64,000 nt of DNA from a virus. Positions within the stretch are counted from its first letter, which is position 1, and every line of letters starts with the position of its first letter. The position numbers and the translations under genes were made by a program. Below the pieces are notes generated by a model. It had not been told where the DNA came from and did no database searches. It saw only the letters and a list, made by a program, of their open reading frames with translations. Positions 4,175 to 43,866 of the stretch are shown here, piece by piece. The stretch spans positions 10,157 through 74,156 of the IMG/VR virus record IMGVR_UViG_3300045284_000330, one strand, 5' to 3'.

Positions 4175-4344
4175 CAACCGACCCCCGACGACCGCGCCAA
4201 GGCCGCAATGCGCCATTGCGTTAGGCGGCAGGTAGTGCGAAGGCATGATCAATTCGCCGCGGCAGCACAGCCGGCAGCCGTTGCATGGCACACGGCGCAG
4301 TTCGATCAAAGAGCCATCCAATCTCGTCATTCCGTCCAACGCGC

Positions 4345-4788
4345 TCACAGCGCAGGCGCCGACCCATGGCCATCCCCGCGACATCCGCGCCCGCGCCGCC
4401 GCGGCCGCGCCGGCAAGCTCTCCGCCGCAACCGGTATCACCCGCCGCAAAAACAACACCGCCGGCCCGGCAATGTGCGGCAGCCCATCAGGATCATCGTC
4501 GGGATGAAGCAGCAGATGCGCCGCCCGATAAAACCGCGTCGCCTCCTCGTTCACCGGCAAACGCCGCAGAACCGCCGTCTCGCCGTAGAACAGGTCAACC
4601 GTGTCGCGTTCTCGCGCACGCTCCCATTCCCCCGCGGGCGCGAGCACCTGGACGTGGTGCATCGCCATGCCGGATAAATGCGGCTCGACAACCAGCCGCA
4701 ACTCGGCCCTCGTCGGGAACTCCGGCAGATCAACTACATTGACGCTGGTTTCGCCCTCGACCGTCAGCACATTTAAAATCGTCTCCAT
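4345..4788 (-). CDS. Hypothetical phage protein
   Basis: METILNVLTVEG...LPVNEEAT...PHIAGPAVLF; GGAGG RBS upstream. Confidence 0.5.
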   Translation of the reverse strand: METILNVLTVEGETSVNVVDLPEFPTRAELRLVVEPHLSGMAMHHVQVLAPAGEWERARERDTVDLFYGETAVLRRLPVNEEATRFYRAAHLLLHPDDDPDGLPHIAGPAVLFLRRVIPVAAESLPARPRRRGRGCRGDGHGSAPAL

Positions 4789-5128
4789 CCGCGTGCCCCC
4801 TCCGCGGGCGCGCGCCCCCGCACGCCGCATAGCGTCCCGTGGCCGGCAGGAGGTCGGCATCCACGCACGTCGTGGAGGCTTCTGCGAGCAAGGTCCACGG
4901 AAAAGTTACTTCACAACGTCAACCGTTGGCCGTGCAAGACCGTTCGATGACGCCTCGATCAATTTTTAACGCAGATTTAATAGCTTTGGTCGTATTCGTG
5001 TGTGCACAACGTCCGTCAACCCCCCCGCCTGAGGGGTTGACGGCCGTTGCCGACTTCCTCGCCGCGCTCGACCCGGACTACACAAAAACGTTATGGAAAA
5101 CGAGGCATTGCCTTGAGACACTTGGCAA

Positions 5129-5446
5129 ATGCCCCGCCGCCCAAATACAATCCAGCAGCACAAGGTCGCCAAGCGCATTACCGCGCTGCGGCAAGCGCGC
5201 GGAATGACCAAAGCCGCCTTCGCCCGCAGCTGCGGGATCACACCGCAAGAGATCGGCAACTACGAGACCGGCGGCCGACTGCCATCAATACCCGCAGCAC
5301 ACAAAATCTGCCTCGCCCACGGCGTGAGCTTCGATTACATCTATCGCGGAATCCTCAAAGATTTGCCGGACGACCTGCGCGAGCGCATCCCAGCCCTGCT
5401 GGCACGGCCAAAAGAACCGCCGCGGCCACGGCGGGAAAAGCGGTAG
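5129..5446 (+). CDS. XRE-family HTH regulator
   Basis: RITALRQARGMTKAAFARSCGITPQEIGNYETGGRLP. Confidence 0.85.
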   Translation: MPRRPNTIQQHKVAKRITALRQARGMTKAAFARSCGITPQEIGNYETGGRLPSIPAAHKICLAHGVSFDYIYRGILKDLPDDLRERIPALLARPKEPPRPRREKR

Positions 5447-5509
5447 CCCCCGTCCTCAACCATCAAGCCATCCTTGACGCCACCGCACCCGCGGCGCAGG
5501 CTCTCCACC

Positions 5510-5758
5510 ATGACCCAAGTCCTGTTCGACAAACTCGCCTACATGGACCGCCTCACCCGGGCCGGCATCAACGAAACCCAGGCCCGCGCCCACGCGGAAG
5601 CCATGGAAGAGGCGCTGCGAGAAAGCGTGGCGACCAAGTCTGACGTCCGCGATCTCGAAAACAAGATCGAAATCGCCGTCCGCGATATGACAATCCGAAC
5701 CGGAGCAATGCTCATCGTCCTGTTCGGAGCACTCGCATCAATCAAATTCTTCGGATGA
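5510..5758 (+). CDS. DUF1640/CCDC90-like coiled-coil protein with C-terminal TM
   Basis: FDKLAYMDRLTRAGINETQARAHAEA...VATKSDV...MTIRTGAML; preceded by operator 5462-5478. Confidence 0.75.
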   Translation: MTQVLFDKLAYMDRLTRAGINETQARAHAEAMEEALRESVATKSDVRDLENKIEIAVRDMTIRTGAMLIVLFGALASIKFFG

Positions 5759-5959
5759 ACGCTGAAACCGATCCGGGTCACGCTCGATCAACTCCCGCAT
5801 TTGACGATCCGCTTCAATGAAGAATTCCGTGATATCCAGAATCCCTCGGAGTAGCGCCACGCCCTTGACTTGGGCTAGTCGCACCTCGATCTCGCGGCGC
5901 AGCTCGACGCGCTCGATCACCTTGTCAGCCTGAATATCTGCACCCATCGCGCATGGCCC

Positions 5960-6229
5960 TCAGCGCCACCGGTCTCGCTCGGCAGCGTCTTCGTCTTCCT
6001 TCAAGCAAGCGTCGCACACGGCATTATCCGGCACCGGCTCCTCAAAGTGCGGCCACTCCCAAACGACATGACAGCAGAAAGCGCAGATCGGGAACGTCAC
6101 CGAATGTGGTGGCGACAACCTTTTGTAGCTTCCATCTTTCCACCCAATCGGGGAGTCAAAATCATCAAACAGCGGACCACGCCAGCATTTGGCTTTCGTT
6201 TCATCATCGCGTTTTGGTGGCGTGTACTT
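5960..6229 (-). CDS. Hypothetical Cys-cluster protein
   Basis: MKYTPPK...CAFCC...CDAC. Confidence 0.35.
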   Translation of the reverse strand, partial: KYTPPKRDDETKAKCWRGPLFDDFDSPIGWKDGSYKRLSPPHSVTFPICAFCCHVVWEWPHFEEPVPDNAVCDACLKEDEDAAERDRWR

Positions 6230-6236
6230 CATCGCT

Positions 6237-6443
6237 TCATCTTCGGATGAGCGCATAACGCAGACGCTTCGAACATCCGCACGTCCGCACCAAACCACGC
6301 CGCAGCCCACACGTCGACGCGTACGTCTCCCCACCACACTCGCAACGGCAGCGCCAAATGATGTGCTTGTGCGCGTCAGCGCCATCCCGCCCAACCACAG
6401 TCAAACAGCCAAACCGCTGGCCGCGTAAATCAGCACGAGGCAT
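6237..6443 (-). CDS. Stand-alone N-terminal domain of the AP2/HNH-associated family
   Basis: DLRGQRFGCLTVV...WRCRCECG...LRRG..TCGC. Confidence 0.65.
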   Translation of the reverse strand: MPRADLRGQRFGCLTVVGRDGADAHKHIIWRCRCECGGETYASTCGLRRGLVRTCGCSKRLRYALIRR

Positions 6444-6716
6444 CCAAATCACACACCCGAAATAGCCCAGCCCGCAGCCGCCCCTACGGCAGTGCCAGCT
6501 GCGGGCCGACTGAACCATCCCGCGCTGCCGGGCGAAAACGAGATGGCCAAAACACCCCTACACGATTTGTGATGCCCAGGCTATTGCCTCCCACACGCAC
6601 GACAAGCGGCAGCGGTCATGCTTGCCGTGCAGGCATGCCGTCGAAAGATAGTCGTGGGGATCGGCTCTCGTCAGACGCTCGATCTCGTCGGCGCCAATCA
6701 TAATGCTCCTCCGGGC

Positions 6717-10010: not shown

Positions 10011-11390
10011 TCATTTCTCCACCTCAACCAAAAACGATCTTTTGTGTGATTTTGAGCCTTCGGTGTGGACTTTGAGGTGGCCGCTGTTGAAGAGGCGCGT
10101 CATGGCGTCGTTGAGCGCCCGCTTTTTGATCCCGGCGTTTTTGGCTGCGTCCTCTTTTGCGAACAGGCTCGGCGCGTGTTTGTTGCTGCCGTTGTGACTG
10201 ACGGTTCGCCCCTCGATCGTGAATCGGCGCAACAACGTCATGAAGACATCATCGGCCTTGGCTGCGGCGGCGACGGCGTCGATCGATCCGGCGACGGGCT
10301 CGGGCGCGAAGATTCCGTCGCTCCATCGCAGCACGACGGCGTTGCCCGCCGGGCCATAGTTATTTTTCACGAACTGGAGCTTGCGCAGTTCGGCGCCGGC
10401 CACCTCGTCGTCATCGTCTTCGTCTTTGCTGGTCACGGCTGCGAGATACATTCGGGCGCGTACGCTGTTGTGCCAGGCGGTCGAGCCGCTCAGTCCGCTT
10501 GCGCTCTTGAGCCCGGATAGCGATGGGTGTGACAGCAGGATCAGCGCGGCGCTGGTGGCCATTGCGAGTCCGCGCAGCAGCGTTATGAATTGCCGTGTTT
10601 GCGAGCGGTCGATTTCGTTTCCGGCGAAGACGTCGGCTGCGGTGTCGATGACGATCAACTTGGGGCGCAGGTTGAGCGCGTCGGTGCGCAGTTGCTCGAA
10701 CATCGCTGTTGGCTTGACGATTCCGCTACGATCTGGTGCGGCGAGGATGGCGTCGGCGCCGGCGCGCGAGATCACCCACAGGCCGGCGTCGCGCAGCTCG
10801 GCGCGGGTCGTGTCGTAGTGCTCCGCGATCTTTTCCAGGCGTCGGCAGATTTCGGCGTCGTCCTCCTCGGCTGAGAAGTAGAGCGCCGGGCCGCACTCTG
10901 GCAGCATGGTGACCCAGTCTTTTCCGAGCACTGTTGCGGCGCATAGCTGCAGGATCAGCAGCGATTTGCCGATCGCGCCATGTCCTGAGAACAGCGTCAC
11001 GGCGGCGGCTGGGATGCGATCGAGCACCTCCCACGCCCGCACCGGGATGGGATCGATGGCGATGTTGACATATGTGAAGGGGGGCGGCGTCGGTGCCTTG
11101 GCCTCATGCGCCTGGCCGTTTCCATTACCTTTCGTCTCGCTTGCGCGGATGCCGTCGGCTATTGCCGCTTGCACTGCATCGGCGCTGATTTCATGAACAT
11201 CGATTGCCAGATCGGAGAGATGATCGATGGCGGCGCTATCGCCGAAAGGCGCGATCTTTGCGACGCCGTTGCGCAGGGCCATCAGCTTGTTGAGTTCACC
11301 GTCCGCCTGGCTCATTGCGAGGTAGGCGGCGGTCATGGCCTTTGTCACGGCCAGCGGTCGGGTAACGTCCTCTCTGTCATCGTCCCGCAC
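10011..11390 (-). CDS. RepA-like AAA helicase (AAA_25)
   Basis: Walker A GHGAIGKS, FSAEED, Walker B IVIDT, HPS..GSTAWHNSVR, KNNYG. Confidence 0.9.
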   Translation of the reverse strand: MRDDDREDVTRPLAVTKAMTAAYLAMSQADGELNKLMALRNGVAKIAPFGDSAAIDHLSDLAIDVHEISADAVQAAIADGIRASETKGNGNGQAHEAKAPTPPPFTYVNIAIDPIPVRAWEVLDRIPAAAVTLFSGHGAIGKSLLILQLCAATVLGKDWVTMLPECGPALYFSAEEDDAEICRRLEKIAEHYDTTRAELRDAGLWVISRAGADAILAAPDRSGIVKPTAMFEQLRTDALNLRPKLIVIDTAADVFAGNEIDRSQTRQFITLLRGLAMATSAALILLSHPSLSGLKSASGLSGSTAWHNSVRARMYLAAVTSKDEDDDDEVAGAELRKLQFVKNNYGPAGNAVVLRWSDGIFAPEPVAGSIDAVAAAAKADDVFMTLLRRFTIEGRTVSHNGSNKHAPSLFAKEDAAKNAGIKKRALNDAMTRLFNSGHLKVHTEGSKSHKRSFLVEVEK

Positions 11391-18514: not shown

Positions 18515-19366
18515 TTGCGCGTGACGCCACTCGCCTTCGAGTTGATGCGCGATCTCACGACGCCGTGCGCCCTTCACGTGCGAGATTATCGGGATTGGTC
18601 TGGCCGTGAACCGCTGAACGATAAGGCCTGCCGAGCCGAACTATGGAAGGCGGCGAACGAAAGTCAATTTTTTGAGCTATCCGCAATCGCGTCGCTTTGC
18701 GAAGAAAGCGGCGAAAAGATGCGTGCGTATTACGAGAATTCTCACAGGTGGAATAGTCGGCTCGCATTCCTGCCTGCAGTCAAAACGTGGATCGAATTTG
18801 ATTTTGGCGTAGATCGGCAAGCTTATTGCCTCGATAGCGGTGATGATCCACTCGGAACTGCACATTTTGCGATAATCGCACGCAGACCACATCAGCCATG
18901 GACTTTCTGGCGACTCGGGGACATCGGAATGGTGAAATCCGAAGAAAAACCACATACTCTCACCTGCAACGCTGACAACGGAAAACGCAAGGGCGAAGCG
19001 TCCGAGCTGCAGTTCTTGGTCTACGCCGCGCTCGCCTTCATCAATTCGCCTCGCATCATTGGTCGACGGCAGCACATGCCGCATGAGAGAGCCGAACGCG
19101 AACGGTTAAAATCGCGAGGGCTCGCAGGCAAGTTTCCATTGCGCGCGTGGACCGAGATCATCCTCAAGGTGATGCCGCCCGACGACAAGACTGGCGAACC
19201 CTCGCAAGAGGCGCACCTGACCGGCGAGCGCTGCCTACATTTCGTCCGCACGTTTTTGCGCGTGCGCCTCGGCCAGCTCGAGTATGTGAATTGCCATTGG
19301 CGCGGCGACCCAGCGCTCGGCATGAAGCGGTCGCGGTACATCCTGCGGCCAGAGGAGCGCGCATGA
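18515..19366 (+). CDS. Phage hypothetical protein
   Basis: Long ORF ending LHFVRTFLR..G..EYV..HWRGDP.LG. Confidence 0.6.
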   Translation: MRVTPLAFELMRDLTTPCALHVRDYRDWSGREPLNDKACRAELWKAANESQFFELSAIASLCEESGEKMRAYYENSHRWNSRLAFLPAVKTWIEFDFGVDRQAYCLDSGDDPLGTAHFAIIARRPHQPWTFWRLGDIGMVKSEEKPHTLTCNADNGKRKGEASELQFLVYAALAFINSPRIIGRRQHMPHERAERERLKSRGLAGKFPLRAWTEIILKVMPPDDKTGEPSQEAHLTGERCLHFVRTFLRVRLGQLEYVNCHWRGDPALGMKRSRYILRPEERA

Positions 19367-20322
19367 TCGAAACGTTTGACATCACCGGGCGCCACGATCT
19401 GTGGTCCGAATTGCGCAAGGGCCAGGTGACGGCCAGCGCGGTCGCCGCGCTGCTCGACGCACACCCGTTTATGTCGCGTCTCGGCCTCCATCTTTTGAAG
19501 TCTGATTTGATCGCCGAGGACCCGGAGGAGACCGCGCCGATGAAACGCGGGCGGTTACTCGAACCAGTTGCCGCGCAACTGCTAAGCGAGCTTCGGCCGA
19601 ATTGGAAAATACAGTATCCGGTTGGGCTTTATTTCCGCGATACGGAGGCGAGGCTCGGGGCGACGCCGGATTGTTTTGCAACAGACGAAAACGGCAAGTT
19701 GGGTGTTGTCCAATTCAAATCGGTCGAGGAGACCTTTTTCAGGCGCCTCTGGCGCGACGAAGACCGCGCGATCTCGCCGCCGCTCTATCCGGTGATTCAG
19801 GCAATCACCGAGGCATATCTGACCAGCGCGAGCTGGGCCGCGGTCGCCGCGCTTGTGATTGGTTTCGGCGTCGAACTTCACATCGTCGAAATTCCCATTC
19901 ACGCAGGCGTCATCGATCGGATCAAGGCCGAGGTGCGCGAATTTTGGGACCGCATCGAGCGGAAGGACCCACCGCCGGCGGACTACGCTCGGGACAGCAA
20001 ACTGATTGCAAAACTATTCCCAGAAAGCGACGGGCACATTATCGACCTGTCTTCCGATAATATGCTGCCGGAACTCGCCGTCCAGGATCGCGCTTTGGCT
20101 GACGAGATCAAGGAACGAAAAGAACGCCGCGAGGCCATCAAGAGCGAAATCCTGATGAAGCTCGGAACGGCCTCGGGCGCGACCTTTCAGGGCGGCCGCA
20201 TCACGGCGAACACCGTTCACCGCAAAGCTTATACCGTCGCTGCAACCGCATATCGAGATCTGCGAATAAAGCTCGAAGATCATGGAGGACCGCATCATGG
20301 AAGTGAAATGCATCGAGGTTAG
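19363..20322 (+). CDS. YqaJ-like viral recombinase exonuclease
   Basis: W..LR...VTAS, RGRLLEP, LGATPD, QFKS. Confidence 0.85.
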   Translation: MIETFDITGRHDLWSELRKGQVTASAVAALLDAHPFMSRLGLHLLKSDLIAEDPEETAPMKRGRLLEPVAAQLLSELRPNWKIQYPVGLYFRDTEARLGATPDCFATDENGKLGVVQFKSVEETFFRRLWRDEDRAISPPLYPVIQAITEAYLTSASWAAVAALVIGFGVELHIVEIPIHAGVIDRIKAEVREFWDRIERKDPPPADYARDSKLIAKLFPESDGHIIDLSSDNMLPELAVQDRALADEIKERKERREAIKSEILMKLGTASGATFQGGRITANTVHRKAYTVAATAYRDLRIKLEDHGGPHHGSEMHRG

Positions 20323-20635
20323 GGATCATAATACGTTTCTCCCCGTGATCTGCATCCGCCCGGTTCCGACGAATGCGGAGCAGCGCTATCTCCTGCGGCG
20401 CGATGGGTATCGCGGGGACGCGACGGAGCGCTGCATCATCATGATCGACGCGCAGTGCCGCGGCGTTTCTTACGATCCCTATGACTGGCAAGGTGACAAC
20501 AGAACCAAGCCGGTGGCGCATAATTTCATCGCAGAGCATTGGGATGATTTGCGGGATGGCGATGTCGTGGATGTCGCGTTTATTCTCGGCGAAGCCGAAG
20601 AACGAAAGATCAGCGAGCGCGAGGAAGCAGTTTGA
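20297..20635 (+). CDS. Phage hypothetical protein
   Basis: IEVRD..TF.P...YLLRR.GY...DPYDW...RT...AH..I..HWD.L.DGDVVDV.FILGE. Confidence 0.65.
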   Translation: MEVKCIEVRDHNTFLPVICIRPVPTNAEQRYLLRRDGYRGDATERCIIMIDAQCRGVSYDPYDWQGDNRTKPVAHNFIAEHWDDLRDGDVVDVAFILGEAEERKISEREEAV

Positions 20636-20793
20636 GACCTGGCAAGGCAGGACTTGGCGCGGCGAGGCGAGGCATGGCAAGGCGGGGCCGGGCAAGGCTT
20701 GGCGAGGCATGGGGCCGTATGGCCGGTTCAGTTTCAGTTGGGCGGGGCAAGGCACGGCGTGGCAGGGCAAGGTAGGGCACGGTTTTTACCGTG
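20636..20793 (+). ncRNA. GGY-NN pentamer repeat array with terminal hairpins (candidate guide-like RNA)
   Basis: 14 pentamers at 20641-20710 (13 GGC, 1 GAC), hairpin GGCC-GTAT-GGCC at 20713-20724, 9 GGY pentamers at 20741-20785, hairpin CACGGT-TTTT-ACCGTG at 20778-20793. Confidence 0.65.
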
Positions 20794-20811
20794 AAAACGG
20801 AGCAAACAGCT

Positions 20812-21804
20812 ATGAACGAGATGCCAAATCAGGTCGCCGTCTTTCGACACGAATTGCAAAACATGGAACCGCAGTTCGCCGCGGCACTGCCGCCGCATAT
20901 CACCGTTGCGCGTTTTGCGCGCGTTTTACAAACCGCCGTCCAGAACAATCCAGACCTGCTCTACAAATGTGACCGTCGGTCGCTCTGGAACTCCGCGATG
21001 AAGTGCGCCCAGGATGGGTTGGTCGCCGACAATCGTGAGGCCGCCATCGTTGTTTATGGTGACCAAGCTCAATATCTCCCGATGATTGCTGGACTCCGCA
21101 AGAAGGCGCGCAACTCTGGCGAGATCGCGACGTGGGATGCGCAGGTCGTTCACGCCAAGGACGCATTCGAATTCGAGCTTGGCGACGAACCGTTTATCCG
21201 GCACCGGCCTTGCCTCGACGAAGACCCGGGGCCGGTGAGGGCGGCATATTCGGTCGCGGTGCTCAAGTCCGGCGAAAAATCTCGTGAGGTCATGTCGGTG
21301 ACCGCCATCGAAAAGGTGCGCGCGCGCTCACGCGCTAAGAAGGGCGGGCCGTGGTTTACCGACTATGAAGAGATGTGTCGGAAGACCGTGGCTCGCCGGC
21401 ATTCCAAAGTCCTACCAACTTCGGTAGATATCGACACTCTCCTGCAGCGCGATGACGACCTCTATGATCTTAAGACCGGTGCCGGCGATGGCGGCATCGC
21501 GCCAGGCGAAAAGCCGCGGACGCTCGCCGGCCGCCTCGACGCCTTGGCGGGGCCAGTCCGAGAAACCGTCCTGGCATCTCGGGAACACCGCCAGGACGGC
21601 GACGAAGGGGCGGGCGCGGGGGACGCAGACGGGGCGCCCGCCCCCGCACAGAATTCCGCTGTGGACCTTCAGCCGCCTGCATCGGCGCAGGCCGCAGGCT
21701 CGGCGAGCCCGGCGAAGACGCCCGCGGCCGACACCACCGAGGCGCGCGCATACCGGCCGGGAACCGGTGGCGCGCGCCTGTCTGATCTCGATGTGGGGGA
21801 ATGA
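20812..21804 (+). CDS. recT: RecT family ssDNA-annealing protein
   Basis: ALPPHI...RF.R...CAQDGL...M..GL...ARNSGEI...PW..DYEEM.RKTV.RR.SK.LP. Confidence 0.9.
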   Translation: MNEMPNQVAVFRHELQNMEPQFAAALPPHITVARFARVLQTAVQNNPDLLYKCDRRSLWNSAMKCAQDGLVADNREAAIVVYGDQAQYLPMIAGLRKKARNSGEIATWDAQVVHAKDAFEFELGDEPFIRHRPCLDEDPGPVRAAYSVAVLKSGEKSREVMSVTAIEKVRARSRAKKGGPWFTDYEEMCRKTVARRHSKVLPTSVDIDTLLQRDDDLYDLKTGAGDGGIAPGEKPRTLAGRLDALAGPVRETVLASREHRQDGDEGAGAGDADGAPAPAQNSAVDLQPPASAQAAGSASPAKTPAADTTEARAYRPGTGGARLSDLDVGE

Positions 21805-21807
21805 CAC

Positions 21808-22803
21808 TTGGCCCGTCGCATTATCACTCGTGAGAAAGCTCGTCGCATTATCACTCGTGAGGAAGCCATCCAGGCGGGGGCTAAATACTACTTCACTGGC
21901 AAGCCATGCAAGCGCGGGCACTTAAAACGCTATGCCAGCACTACAAGATGCGTAGAATGCACTCTTGCTGGCTGCCGGCTGTATGAGAAGATGAACGCAG
22001 ATAAGGTTAGAACATGGGGTAGATTATACCGGCAAAAGAACCTGGCCAAATTGGCAGCGTACCACCGGCGCTGGTACCAAAAAAATCGCGAGACACTTAG
22101 TGTTCGAGGTAAATTATATCGGCAAAAAAACGCGGATAAGATTAAAACACGCGACCGGCTGTATCGAGAACAGAATCGCGATAGTTTGAAAGCCTACCGG
22201 AAGAAGAATGCTGATAGGCGAAAAGCGCGCTACCGTGAATGGTGGCTAAAGAATTTGGATAAGAATAAGGCGCGCCGCAGATTGTACGTCCAAAAGAATG
22301 CGGAAAAGATTAGAGAACGCCGGCGGCTCCAGAGGCAAAAGAGTGCGGACCAGCGCAGGGCATACAGGCAATTGTATTATGAAAAGAACCGCGTAAAGAT
22401 TATTGCTGCCAATCGTCTGTATTTTAAAGAAAATGCGGAAAAGATTAGAGAACGCCGGCGAGTGCACAGACAAAAGAACGCGGATAAAATCAAGGCGGCT
22501 CGGTCGGCGTACCGCAGAAAGAATCATGACATCCTCGTCGCATACAATCGGCGATATCATCTGGTGAATAATATTGCCGTTACCGCGCTGAGACAATTAG
22601 GAATTGAAATGTCGGCAGTGGGGCGCGGCCATCGCGGCAGCTTTGCCGCGGCCGCGCTGAAGCAGTTGGGAATTAAACTCAGGGAGGACGACAATGTTAG
22701 GCGAACGAAGCCCGCTGCAGCTATTGACCAATTTGATCGAAGAGGAGCCCACCGCGGATCAGGATACGATTTACCACAAGTGGCGAGCAAAGATCGCCGA
22801 TGA
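21808..22803 (+). CDS. HNH-family N-terminal Zn domain plus long basic helical repeats, no nuclease domain seen
   Basis: YFTGKPCKRGH...CVEC followed by many YRQKNADKIK-like repeats; AT-rich. Confidence 0.6.
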   Translation: MARRIITREKARRIITREEAIQAGAKYYFTGKPCKRGHLKRYASTTRCVECTLAGCRLYEKMNADKVRTWGRLYRQKNLAKLAAYHRRWYQKNRETLSVRGKLYRQKNADKIKTRDRLYREQNRDSLKAYRKKNADRRKARYREWWLKNLDKNKARRRLYVQKNAEKIRERRRLQRQKSADQRRAYRQLYYEKNRVKIIAANRLYFKENAEKIRERRRVHRQKNADKIKAARSAYRRKNHDILVAYNRRYHLVNNIAVTALRQLGIEMSAVGRGHRGSFAAAALKQLGIKLREDDNVRRTKPAAAIDQFDRRGAHRGSGYDLPQVASKDRR

Positions 22804-41653: not shown

Positions 41654-43866
41654 TATCTAACTCGTCGAGCACTGATATAGCCGGTCGCGGTGCACGTGCT
41701 GTTGAATGTGCCCTGCGCTGCGAGGTAGACGGTCGCCGGCGCACTCACATTGACGCGCGTCGGACCAGTTTGCATCGTTTGCGTGACGCCATTGCCAAAG
41801 GTCAAACGATACTGAGTCATATTTCCATTGCCAGCACAAATCTGCGCAGCAGTCGGCAACGCCGCGGAAGTATTCGAAACTGCCGCCGCAAGCGCGGTTG
41901 GTCCCTGCGCCGGGCTGAAGATAACAACACCAGCCACCACCCAATCGCCCGGAGTCAACGCCAGCGTCGCGACGTTCGCCGTGACGTTCGTGGTGAGATT
42001 GACGGGCGTCGTCTGGCTGGTGGCGAGCTGCTCACCCAGATTACCCGCCACAGCATTGTCGGCCGCAACCGTGCCCTTGATCGCCTGCCGCGAAGTGTCG
42101 CTCGGATGGACGTGATCGCCTCGGGCCCAGGCTGTGGCGGTGCCGGCGGCGGCCGTCCCGTCCATGGCGGGGGCAGCACTGGACGCAGGAGGAAGCACCG
42201 CATTGACTTGCGCCGCCGTCTGGTAGCCGGCCGGGTTGCTAGCCGCGTAACGTGAGGTATCGGTCGGGTGAACGTGGTCGGACCTTGCCCATGTTGCCGC
42301 CACGCCACCCGCACCGACGCCGTCCATTTGCGGCACGGCGTTCGATCCTGCCGGCGTGCTCGGCACGTAAATCTTGTTGTCGCTGCCCAGGGTGGCGGTG
42401 TTCCCTGCGTCAGCCGAGACCGCTGTCGGACCTGGAGTACCTTGAGGGCCTTGCGGGCCCTGTGACCCTGGTGGTCCCTGCAGACCGGTCGCCCCGTTCG
42501 CTCCGGTGTTGCCTGCCGGACCCTGGATTCCTGGGGTACCCTGGGGCCCCTGCAAGCCTTGTGGACCCACATCACCTTGAAGGCCTTGTGGCCCTTGGAT
42601 TCCTGGGGTGCCGGCTGGGCCTTGGGGACCGTCGTTGCCTTGATGGCCTTGGGGACCTGGAGGTCCTACGGGACCGGCTGGGCCTTGCTGCCCCTGGGAC
42701 ACTATCCCCAGGATGATGTTCATCCCGTTGGTGAGGGTACCGGCACCCGCCTTCCAGGCGATCGGGACCTGGACGTACTCTGGTGAAGCGGGTGGCGCAA
42801 ATGCCGAATTCGTGACGGTGTAGGAGTAGTAGACGGCCGCGCTGTCAGCGTTCTGCAGGAGGATTTCGTTGCCTGACTGGATCAGCCCCAGGATGACGCT
42901 GATGTCGGTGCCCGCACCGTCCAGGTTGCTGATGTAGAGGTTGGCTGCGCTCGCGGGGGTCGCATTATCTAGTTCAACCGTGCCAGCCGCAACTGGCGGG
43001 ACCGTGGTGCTGGTCGAGAAAGCGTAGTTGAAGATGCTGCTGGTATTGCCTTGAGGACCTTGTTGACCTTGCGGTCCGGCAGCTCCTTGGGGGCCGGGTG
43101 CGCCGTCCGCACCGGCCGGACCTTGGGGCCCCACATCACCTTGGAGACCTTGTGGCCCCTGAATACCCTGTGGTCCGGCTGGGCCTTGCTGGCCGTCGTT
43201 GCCGGCTGGTCCTTGGGGACCGGCCGGTCCGGCCAAGCCGGGTGATCCGGCCTGACCGCCTGGACCGGGATCGCCTTGCGGACCTTGGGAACCTTCGGCT
43301 CCCGCTGGCCCCTGCGGGCCCTGTGTGCCCTGCGGACCTAAGTCCCCTTGCGGGCCAACCGCGCCTTGCGGGCCAGGATCGCCTTTTTGGCCTGCAGGTC
43401 CGGCCGCTCCCGGAACACCTGATGCACCGTCAACTCCGGCATTTCCTTGGGGACCGGCAGGCCCGGGAACGCCTTGCGGACCTGCAGGGCCGGCCGGACC
43501 TTGAGGACCCGGTGGGCCTTGGATTCCTCCGCCACCACTATCGGCAATTGGCTGCCAGCTTGCATTCTTTCGTCCATACATCGCTCCATCTTGCGGGGCC
43601 TCGGTAACCACTTCGTCCACCGGCACGATAGGCGTCCACGCCCCATCAAGACGCGCGTGCGTGTCGCCATCTGATGGAGCGTCGGGAATGCCAGGAGTGC
43701 CTGGCGGACCTTGGGGACCAGCTGGCCCGGGCGGGCCCGGCGGACCTTGTATGCCTGCACTGCCGCTGCCGATTCGCGCCCACACCTTGTCGAATTCGGA
43801 GTCGATCTGCTTCAGGGCCAGGCCGGGATCGAGGACGGTTGCAGGTTGGAATATGGTGGTGGTCAT
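41653..43866 (-). CDS. Collagen-like fibre protein
   Basis: Long G-x-y runs, DAP.DG..Y.R motifs, AR.DHVHP.DTSR repeats. Confidence 0.85.

Follow-up and report, generated by a model that had tools for sequence, protein, structure and literature searches.

Background

The CRISPR-like VIPR system, described in 2026, consists of a RAMP protein, Vipr, and guide RNAs (vrRNAs) with 9–16 GGY/NN repeats and a conserved 3′ tail. The variable dinucleotides (NN) pair with the DNA target by a 1-nt-skip rule in which the skipped bases are mostly wobble positions, targets lie on either strand and also inside coding regions, and binding silences transcription (bioRxiv 10.64898/2026.04.26.720920). Published cryo-electron microscopy work depicts Vipr protomers that grip each GGY and present each NN. 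In the published intermediates with double-stranded DNA the tail-proximal protomers are always resolved, and the R-loop then extends 3′ to 5′. Natural targets have been called at an NN identity of at least 80%, and no self match above that threshold has been published. Solo vrRNAs, which use the Vipr of a rival, are carried by satellites and by 346 vipr-null Enterobacteriaceae phages; they are functional in trans, and these orphan guides match self with lower scores than they match rivals (Lopez et al., bioRxiv 10.64898/2026.10.15.759431). The present study concerns a locus of this type in a 64-kb stretch of DNA (hereafter the window, the numbering of which is used throughout) that forms positions 10,157–74,156 of IMG/VR record IMGVR_UViG_3300045284_000330. 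The whole record (G000; 74,156 bp) has direct terminal repeats, was estimated by CheckV to be 100% complete, and represents a temperate, GC-rich (61%) phage from an environmental metagenome. Its recombination operon is read from the plus strand in the order yqaJ, orf117, a gap of 178 nt, and recT, and this gap very probably encodes one or two VIPR guide RNAs of the solo kind.

A probable guide RNA array without a detectable vipr gene

The gap between orf117 and recT is laid out on a strict 5-nt lattice, with 15 overlapping matches to lattice runs compared to 0.05 in shuffled sequence. It carries two tracts of GGY-NN units (Table 1), the second in phase with the first (+100 nt). The dinucleotides of tract 1 are AA AG TT GC GA GA AT AA GG CG AA TT GA AT. 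GGC is kept in 13 of its 14 units, the third unit (20,651–20,655) being defective with GAC, and as GGY is kept in all eight units of tract 2, conservation over both tracts stands at 21/22. Tract 1 is followed by a 14-nt tail hairpin that is letter-perfect. The predicted product, vrRNA 1, is a leader followed by about 12–14 GGC-NN units and the GGGGCCGUAUGGCC hairpin tail. Its tail scored as terminator-like, and a strong promoter belonging to the array itself was not found. Both tracts have the repeat units of a vrRNA, and the 3′ tail shared by the clade is seen in vrRNA 1 alone. Tract 2 lacks the canonical tail hairpin, retains just a GTTTTTAC-like piece of the linker, and is possibly a truncated vrRNA; GTTTTTAC is also found in the tail linkers of another phage, G001 (see below). 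The small CACGG hairpin that follows tract 2 folds at −10.7 kcal/mol (z = −1.6), and the fold of the whole region is unremarkable (z = −0.9).

The assignment to VIPR depends on what accompanies such arrays elsewhere. GGC-NN arrays of at least 10 units were detected in at least 120 IMG/VR stretches, and a single protein family of about 205 aa, phrog_4652, adjoins the array in 72 of the 120 loci examined. The member of this family in G001 matches PDB entry 36pp, ‘SUSP1 Vipr protein’ (E = 1.6e-10), and shares 29% identity with Felixounavirus proteins. In the complete G000 genome, the search for phrog_4652 returned nothing at E ≤ 10, a hidden Markov model built from 72 sequences found no vipr, and an iterated profile of 99 Vipr sequences gave a best E value of 0.78 among six-frame open reading frames (ORFs) of at least 50 aa. 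The vap-like family phrog_15946 was not found in G000. When 58 array-associated protein clusters were compared with the genome, only generic phage genes recurred (methylases, an integrase, a helix-turn-helix protein, a 509-aa protein and yqaJ). As the genome is complete and has no detectable vipr, the guides would be solo, and Vipr would be needed in trans.

The gapped, wobble-skipping code that had been proposed for this array from its letters (the sequence-only reading) is correct, and is the one already published as the VIPR 1-nt-skip rule; the array fits that system in its units, leader and tail.

Two other readings of the array were rejected. A TRAP-like or other protein-binding leader would have a similar periodicity, but the same arrays adjoin the Vipr family in 72/120 loci elsewhere, relatives express recT without the array, and an Rfam search of the array matched no family. 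A G-quadruplex, or a coding sequence for a Gly/Ala/Arg peptide, was abandoned once the arrays had been seen beside the Vipr family and the literature had been consulted.

Homology with vipr-bearing loci

The GGGGCCGTATGGCC hairpin of vrRNA 1 is found, letter-identical, after the vrRNAs that flank vipr in seven viral loci (L061, L318, L319, L320, L321/L351, L323 and L324), and in all seven a similar TTCAGTTT linker follows it. The same tail is present on a 12-unit vrRNA of a Vicinamibacterales metagenome-assembled genome (L330) that has Vipr on the same contig. At the other end of the guide, the leader ACCTGGCAAGGC recurs without change in G001 (IMGVR_UViG_3300047160_003651; locus L321/L351), a complete 44-kb phage that has a 68% identical orf117 homologue and shares almost nothing else with G000. 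In G001 this leader, which belongs to the first vrRNA 3′ of orf117, is followed by two vrRNAs and, beyond a 157-aa gene, by seven more; vipr and a Sak4-like gene come next. On sequence identity, vrRNA 1 is homologous at both of its ends to a genuine VIPR locus.

The position of the array is also shared. Among 45 loci with an orf117 homologue, 41 have no array within 4 kb and four have VIPR parts nearby; in three of these four, an array or vipr lies directly 3′ of orf117. With G000 included, four of the 46 phages (G000, G001, L352 and L380) have VIPR parts in this slot, and the others have nothing there. In the relatives L001/L341 and L004 the array is absent and orf117 overlaps, stop codon with start, the gene that follows it, which is recT in the closest relative. 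Since the array is present in G000, absent from its closest relative and has ends in common with G001, the gap is an insertion in a recurrent slot.

Guides with this class of tail have a further peculiarity, in that their last two NN units are semi-constant, with entropies of 1.7 and 2.3 bits compared to 3.1–3.4 bits elsewhere. The last two units of vrRNA 1, GA and AT, are each common at these positions in the class. Constancy of the terminal units can also be seen within single loci. These semi-constant units may be part of the handle or act as a constraint like that of a protospacer adjacent motif (PAM); the work on SUSP1 reports no PAM-like constraint.

Several additional observations concern these loci. 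Across the tail-class vrRNAs (L061, L318–L324, L330 and L351) the last two dinucleotides are mostly GA/AA and then AA/GA/AT. The nine vrRNAs of G001 (L351, nt 4340–6547) all have the one tail class and are split 2 + 7, with a weak AAA_24 (Sak4-like) match after vipr. A 6-unit tract in Reyranella massiliensis 521 (L334), a cultured alphaproteobacterium, is likewise followed by the GGGGCCGTATGGCC hairpin; no match to phrog_4652 was found in that genome, and the tract may perhaps be another solo guide. A metagenome contig (L170, nt 1–1077) carries four GGY-NN arrays of 12–26 units directly upstream of a yqaJ homologue, another link of vrRNA arrays to recombination modules; genes for RecT-like, AAA_24 and DUF669 proteins recur near arrays.

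A near-cognate site in yqaJ

The sequence-only reading had aligned dinucleotides 3–11 of tract 1 with nine codons of the neighbouring yqaJ gene, and this alignment was reproduced from the sequence. The site reads TTg GCt GAc GAg ATc AAg GAa CGa AA, so that 17 of 18 nucleotides agree when every third base is skipped, and each skipped base falls on a wobble position of yqaJ. At the single mismatch the guide has G and the sense strand A, which would give an rG:dT wobble pair. The flanking units were also confirmed as unmatched, the two on the 5′ side scoring 0/4 and the three on the 3′ side 0/6. The site lies 546 nt upstream of the guide on the same strand, and no other site on either strand of the window reaches 16/18. 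For tract 2, the best match in the genome is only 12/16.

The significance of the match was assessed against nulls that scan the whole 74-kb genome, both strands and any sub-window. Guides shuffled in unit order did as well as the observed guide in 2 of 3000 cases at a length of nine units, and in 4 of 6000 when ranked by local score. Codon-aware random guides gave 11/6000, and natural 14-codon strings taken from the ORFs of other GC-rich phages gave 37/6000. None of 280 real foreign vrRNA guides reached 17/18, and that local score was attained by 6 of about 39,000 non-self pairs of guide and locus. A scan of 596 Gb of genomes returned the core pattern 88 times, corresponding to p of about 2e-3, which is of the same order as the nulls. 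Overall, the p value of the match is about 0.0007–0.006, an estimate in which its proximity and strand are left out of account. A 17/18 match is therefore uncommon and unlikely to be due to chance, and we regard it as suggestive of a connection with yqaJ and not as decisive.

A fuller target was sought in relatives and in sequence collections. At its yqaJ site, the array-less relative L341/L125 matches the guide exactly as well as G000 does, with 17/18. The peptide at the site is LADEIKERK in homologues P0001–P0005 and LADEIKDRK in P0006, where the change of Glu to Asp keeps the GA dinucleotide, and the alleles of the clade continue with [ED][RQ]R after the nine residues. Only 8 of 5.8 billion proteins share the C-terminal region of this YqaJ, and none of them reads [FL][DE][IM] after ERK. 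The collections IMG/VR and GTDB were scanned with exact patterns. The 12-unit pattern had no match in IMG/VR; that of units 6–14 had none in IMG/VR and 24 in GTDB, all unrelated; and the core pattern had 7 in IMG/VR and 88 in GTDB, among which the yqaJ of the known relative was the sole related one. With up to three mismatches allowed, no match was found in 401 genomes from the order of a Bradyrhizobium genome, and 401 Acidobacteriota genomes gave four matches of 21/24, all in unrelated contexts. Mutual targeting between G000 and the Vipr phages of the same tail class was not detected above background, vrRNA 1 matching their loci at 17/28 or less. An unrelated phage ORF matched at 23/28. These unrelated matches are at the level expected by chance for the amount of sequence scanned. 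Neither the relatives nor the IMG/VR and GTDB genomes yielded an allele with a fuller match, in collection scans that may have missed near-identical records.

Two matches of other kinds were noted. In tsaD of Companilactobacillus nantensis (L216, nt 4349–4390), 26/28 letters agree with the 14 units of the full guide, which shows that chance alone yields more than 90% identity in a scan of about 600 Gb pre-selected with the core. At position 43,035 of the window (minus strand), the second guide of the Vipr-encoding phage L061 matches at 16/20 (80%), the highest score in the comparison of G000 with the Vipr phages of its tail class, which is on the published threshold and is background for a GC-rich guide.

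Origin of the guide and competing explanations

Whether the nine-codon match reflects a real link to yqaJ is, as judged from these comparisons, an evenly balanced question. The explanation tentatively preferred here, to which as a whole we attach a little less than even confidence, is that the array encodes solo vrRNAs of which the guide has a yqaJ-directed origin. The RNA would be made from the transcript of the yqaJ–orf117–recT operon and would depend for its action on the Vipr of another phage in the same cell whose vrRNAs have this class of tail. The guide may originally have been directed at the LADEIKERK site that this yqaJ clade conserves, and may have arrived, or stayed, by way of a G001-like VIPR locus at the orf117 junction, either through recombination or through loss of vipr. 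Such a history would be the most economical one and would explain together the slot, the leader, the tail, the missing vipr, the truncated second tract and the proximity of guide and site. Complete mismatch of the tail-proximal units is compatible with a near-cognate relic as well as with a match by chance.

A number of results weigh against a yqaJ-directed origin. Over the whole guide the identity is 17/28 (61%), or 17/24 (71%), which is below the published 80% criterion. With the last two units assigned to the handle and the 5′ boundary set at the defective unit, the variable guide would have 10 units and score 17/20 (85%); these boundaries were chosen post hoc. Across 328 guides, matches to the guide’s own locus are only about 2-fold enriched, and the nine guides of G001 show no unusual self-match. 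An allele that matches the 3′ units is absent from the 121 homologues listed, from 80 metagenome loci and from 45 phage loci. The site in the array-less relative equals that of G000 in its match, hence self and non-self are not discriminated, and the proposed donor would be deduced from a single shared junction.

It is possible, and to be taken seriously, that the solo vrRNA is real but its resemblance to yqaJ a coincidence, the true target (a rival phage gene, vipr or a host decoy) being unsampled. Codon strings for charged helices such as LA[DE]EIK[EG]RK are common, the 88 core matches in GTDB fall in unrelated genes, and the 26/28 match in tsaD must be due to chance; the most hostile null (37/6000), the spotting of the match by eye after the fact, the lack of a match for tract 2 and the sub-threshold identity of the whole guide point in the same direction. 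Against this, the genome-wide p value is still 0.006 or lower, and chance does not predict a same-strand site within 0.6 kb. Nor was another target found by the exact 9-unit sub-patterns in IMG/VR or GTDB, or by the scans with up to three mismatches, which were blank for the Bradyrhizobium order and gave only the four unrelated matches in Acidobacteriota.

That the array is a decaying, functionless remnant of a lost VIPR locus appears improbable. The failure to find vipr, the GAC unit and the absence of a tail hairpin from tract 2 would all be explained, but decay sits poorly with GGY intact in all but one of the units of both tracts and with a perfect tail hairpin, and the published solo vrRNAs do function in trans.

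We consider it still less probable that the guide is a weapon against the yqaJ of competing relatives, the phage’s own copy escaping through its mismatched flanks, as the sequence-only reading had suggested. The match is indeed partial, with the tail-proximal units fully mismatched at the end where published target engagement starts (3′ to 5′), and a lower score against self than against rivals is what published orphan vrRNAs display. The flanks of the G000 copy are not derived, however, as the array-less relative and all members of the clade share these residues, and the relative L341/L125 has the same 17/18. No allele spells the 3′ units among the eight proteins with this C-terminal region, and a sensitive allele is not known.

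Repression of the phage’s own recombination operon by the vrRNA, acting through yqaJ, had been offered as the other interpretation and is very improbable: guide and site do lie in one operon and VIPR silences from either strand within coding regions, but vipr was not found in the phage, relatives regulate the same operon without the array, published systems show no self-targets at 80% or above, and with the three tail-proximal units at 0/6 the engagement of its own yqaJ should be poor, so that efficient self-silencing would not be expected.

A broader version of the favoured explanation, that solo vrRNAs are systematically parked beside the carrier’s own copy of the gene family they read, seems unlikely. 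If it were true, guide and near-target would travel as one recombination unit, which in G000 would lie within the yqaJ–recT recombination module itself and would have been captured from a rival’s VIPR locus at a shared junction gene; such linkage would be a general route of guide spread, with self and non-self set by tail-proximal mismatches.

Genomic setting

The coordinates of the locus are collected in Table 1. The YqaJ assignment is based on matches to Pfam YqaJ (E = 8.9e-10) and to phrog_434, RecE-like exonuclease (E = 1.1e-50), and 264 homologues were retrieved; an identical protein is encoded on 11 contigs. Within the orf117 family (the window copy and L341–L385), Cys19, Cys46, Cys54, His75 and His81 are invariant. 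A 27-nt tandem repeat in two copies (96% identical; 21,814–21,866) lies at the start of a 331-aa ORF 3′ of recT. Relatives at the DNA level were sought among GenBank phages, and none was found.

Table 1. Features of the yqaJ–orf117–recT region (window coordinates)
Feature	Position	Strand	Remarks
yqaJ, RecE-like recombination exonuclease	19357..20322	+	ORF open from 19147; start set from homologues
Near-cognate site, codons LADEIKERK	20095..20120	+	guide units 3–11, NNx register, 17/18
orf117, small Cys/His-rich protein	20297..20635	+	112–117 aa; without Pfam or PHROG match
Predicted vrRNA 1, leader ACCT and 14 GGC-NN units	20637..20710	+	units from 20641
Predicted vrRNA 1 tail	20711..20740	+	hairpin GGGGCCGTATGGCC (20711–20724), then linker GGTTCAGTTTCAGTTG; 30 nt between tracts
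Tract 2, 8 GGY-NN units	20741..20780	+	GG AA AC GT AG AA AG AC
Small hairpin and recT ribosome-binding site	20778..20811	+	CACGG-TTTTTA-CCGTG (20778–20793); GGAG (20799–20802)
recT, single-strand annealing protein	20812..21804	+	ATG at 20812; Pfam RecT E = 2.6e-38

Comparison with described systems

The locus extends solo VIPR guides beyond the Enterobacteriaceae phages to a GC-rich temperate phage with a different, simple-hairpin class of tail, and it identifies a recurrent insertion slot after orf117, upstream of a gene for an annealing protein. It would also be a cheap test case for how many matched units suffice, whether self is spared through tail-proximal mismatches, and to which part, handle or guide, the last two units of this tail class are to be counted. 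The scans carry a caution of their own, namely that matches of 80–93% arise by chance once hundreds of gigabases are searched.

Among the closest known systems is the VIPR locus of G001, which has an orf117 homologue and the same leader ACCTGGCAAGGC, tail hairpin and TTCAGTTT linker in the same slot upstream of an annealing-protein gene. In G001 there are nine vrRNAs together with vipr and a Sak4-like (AAA_24) gene, and yqaJ is missing, whereas G000 has one or two tracts, no vipr, and the yqaJ/recT pair. Type II VIPR, as described in Escherichia phage SUSP1 and a P. fulva prophage (bioRxiv 10.64898/2026.04.26.720920,.720927), has the same units, 1-nt-skip register and wobble alignment and a guide of near 12 units; Vipr and Vap are encoded there and were not found in G000, and the tail of SUSP1 is a pseudoknot whereas that of G000 is a simple 14-nt hairpin. 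The solo vrRNAs of SUSP1-like phages and F5 satellites (Lopez et al., bioRxiv 10.64898/2026.10.15.759431) resemble the array of G000 in their GGY-NN units, in a tail that matches those of VIPR elements, and in a carrier that likewise lacks vipr and vap, Vipr presumably being supplied in trans by a rival. Their carriers are Enterobacteriaceae phages, whereas G000 is a GC-rich temperate phage of environmental metagenome origin, and their targets are vipr, another vrRNA, a satellite or host repetitive extragenic palindromic (REP) elements. Unlike them, the G000 guide sits inside a yqaJ–recT recombination operon, and the site that it matches best, a near-cognate one, is in the neighbouring gene of its own genome.

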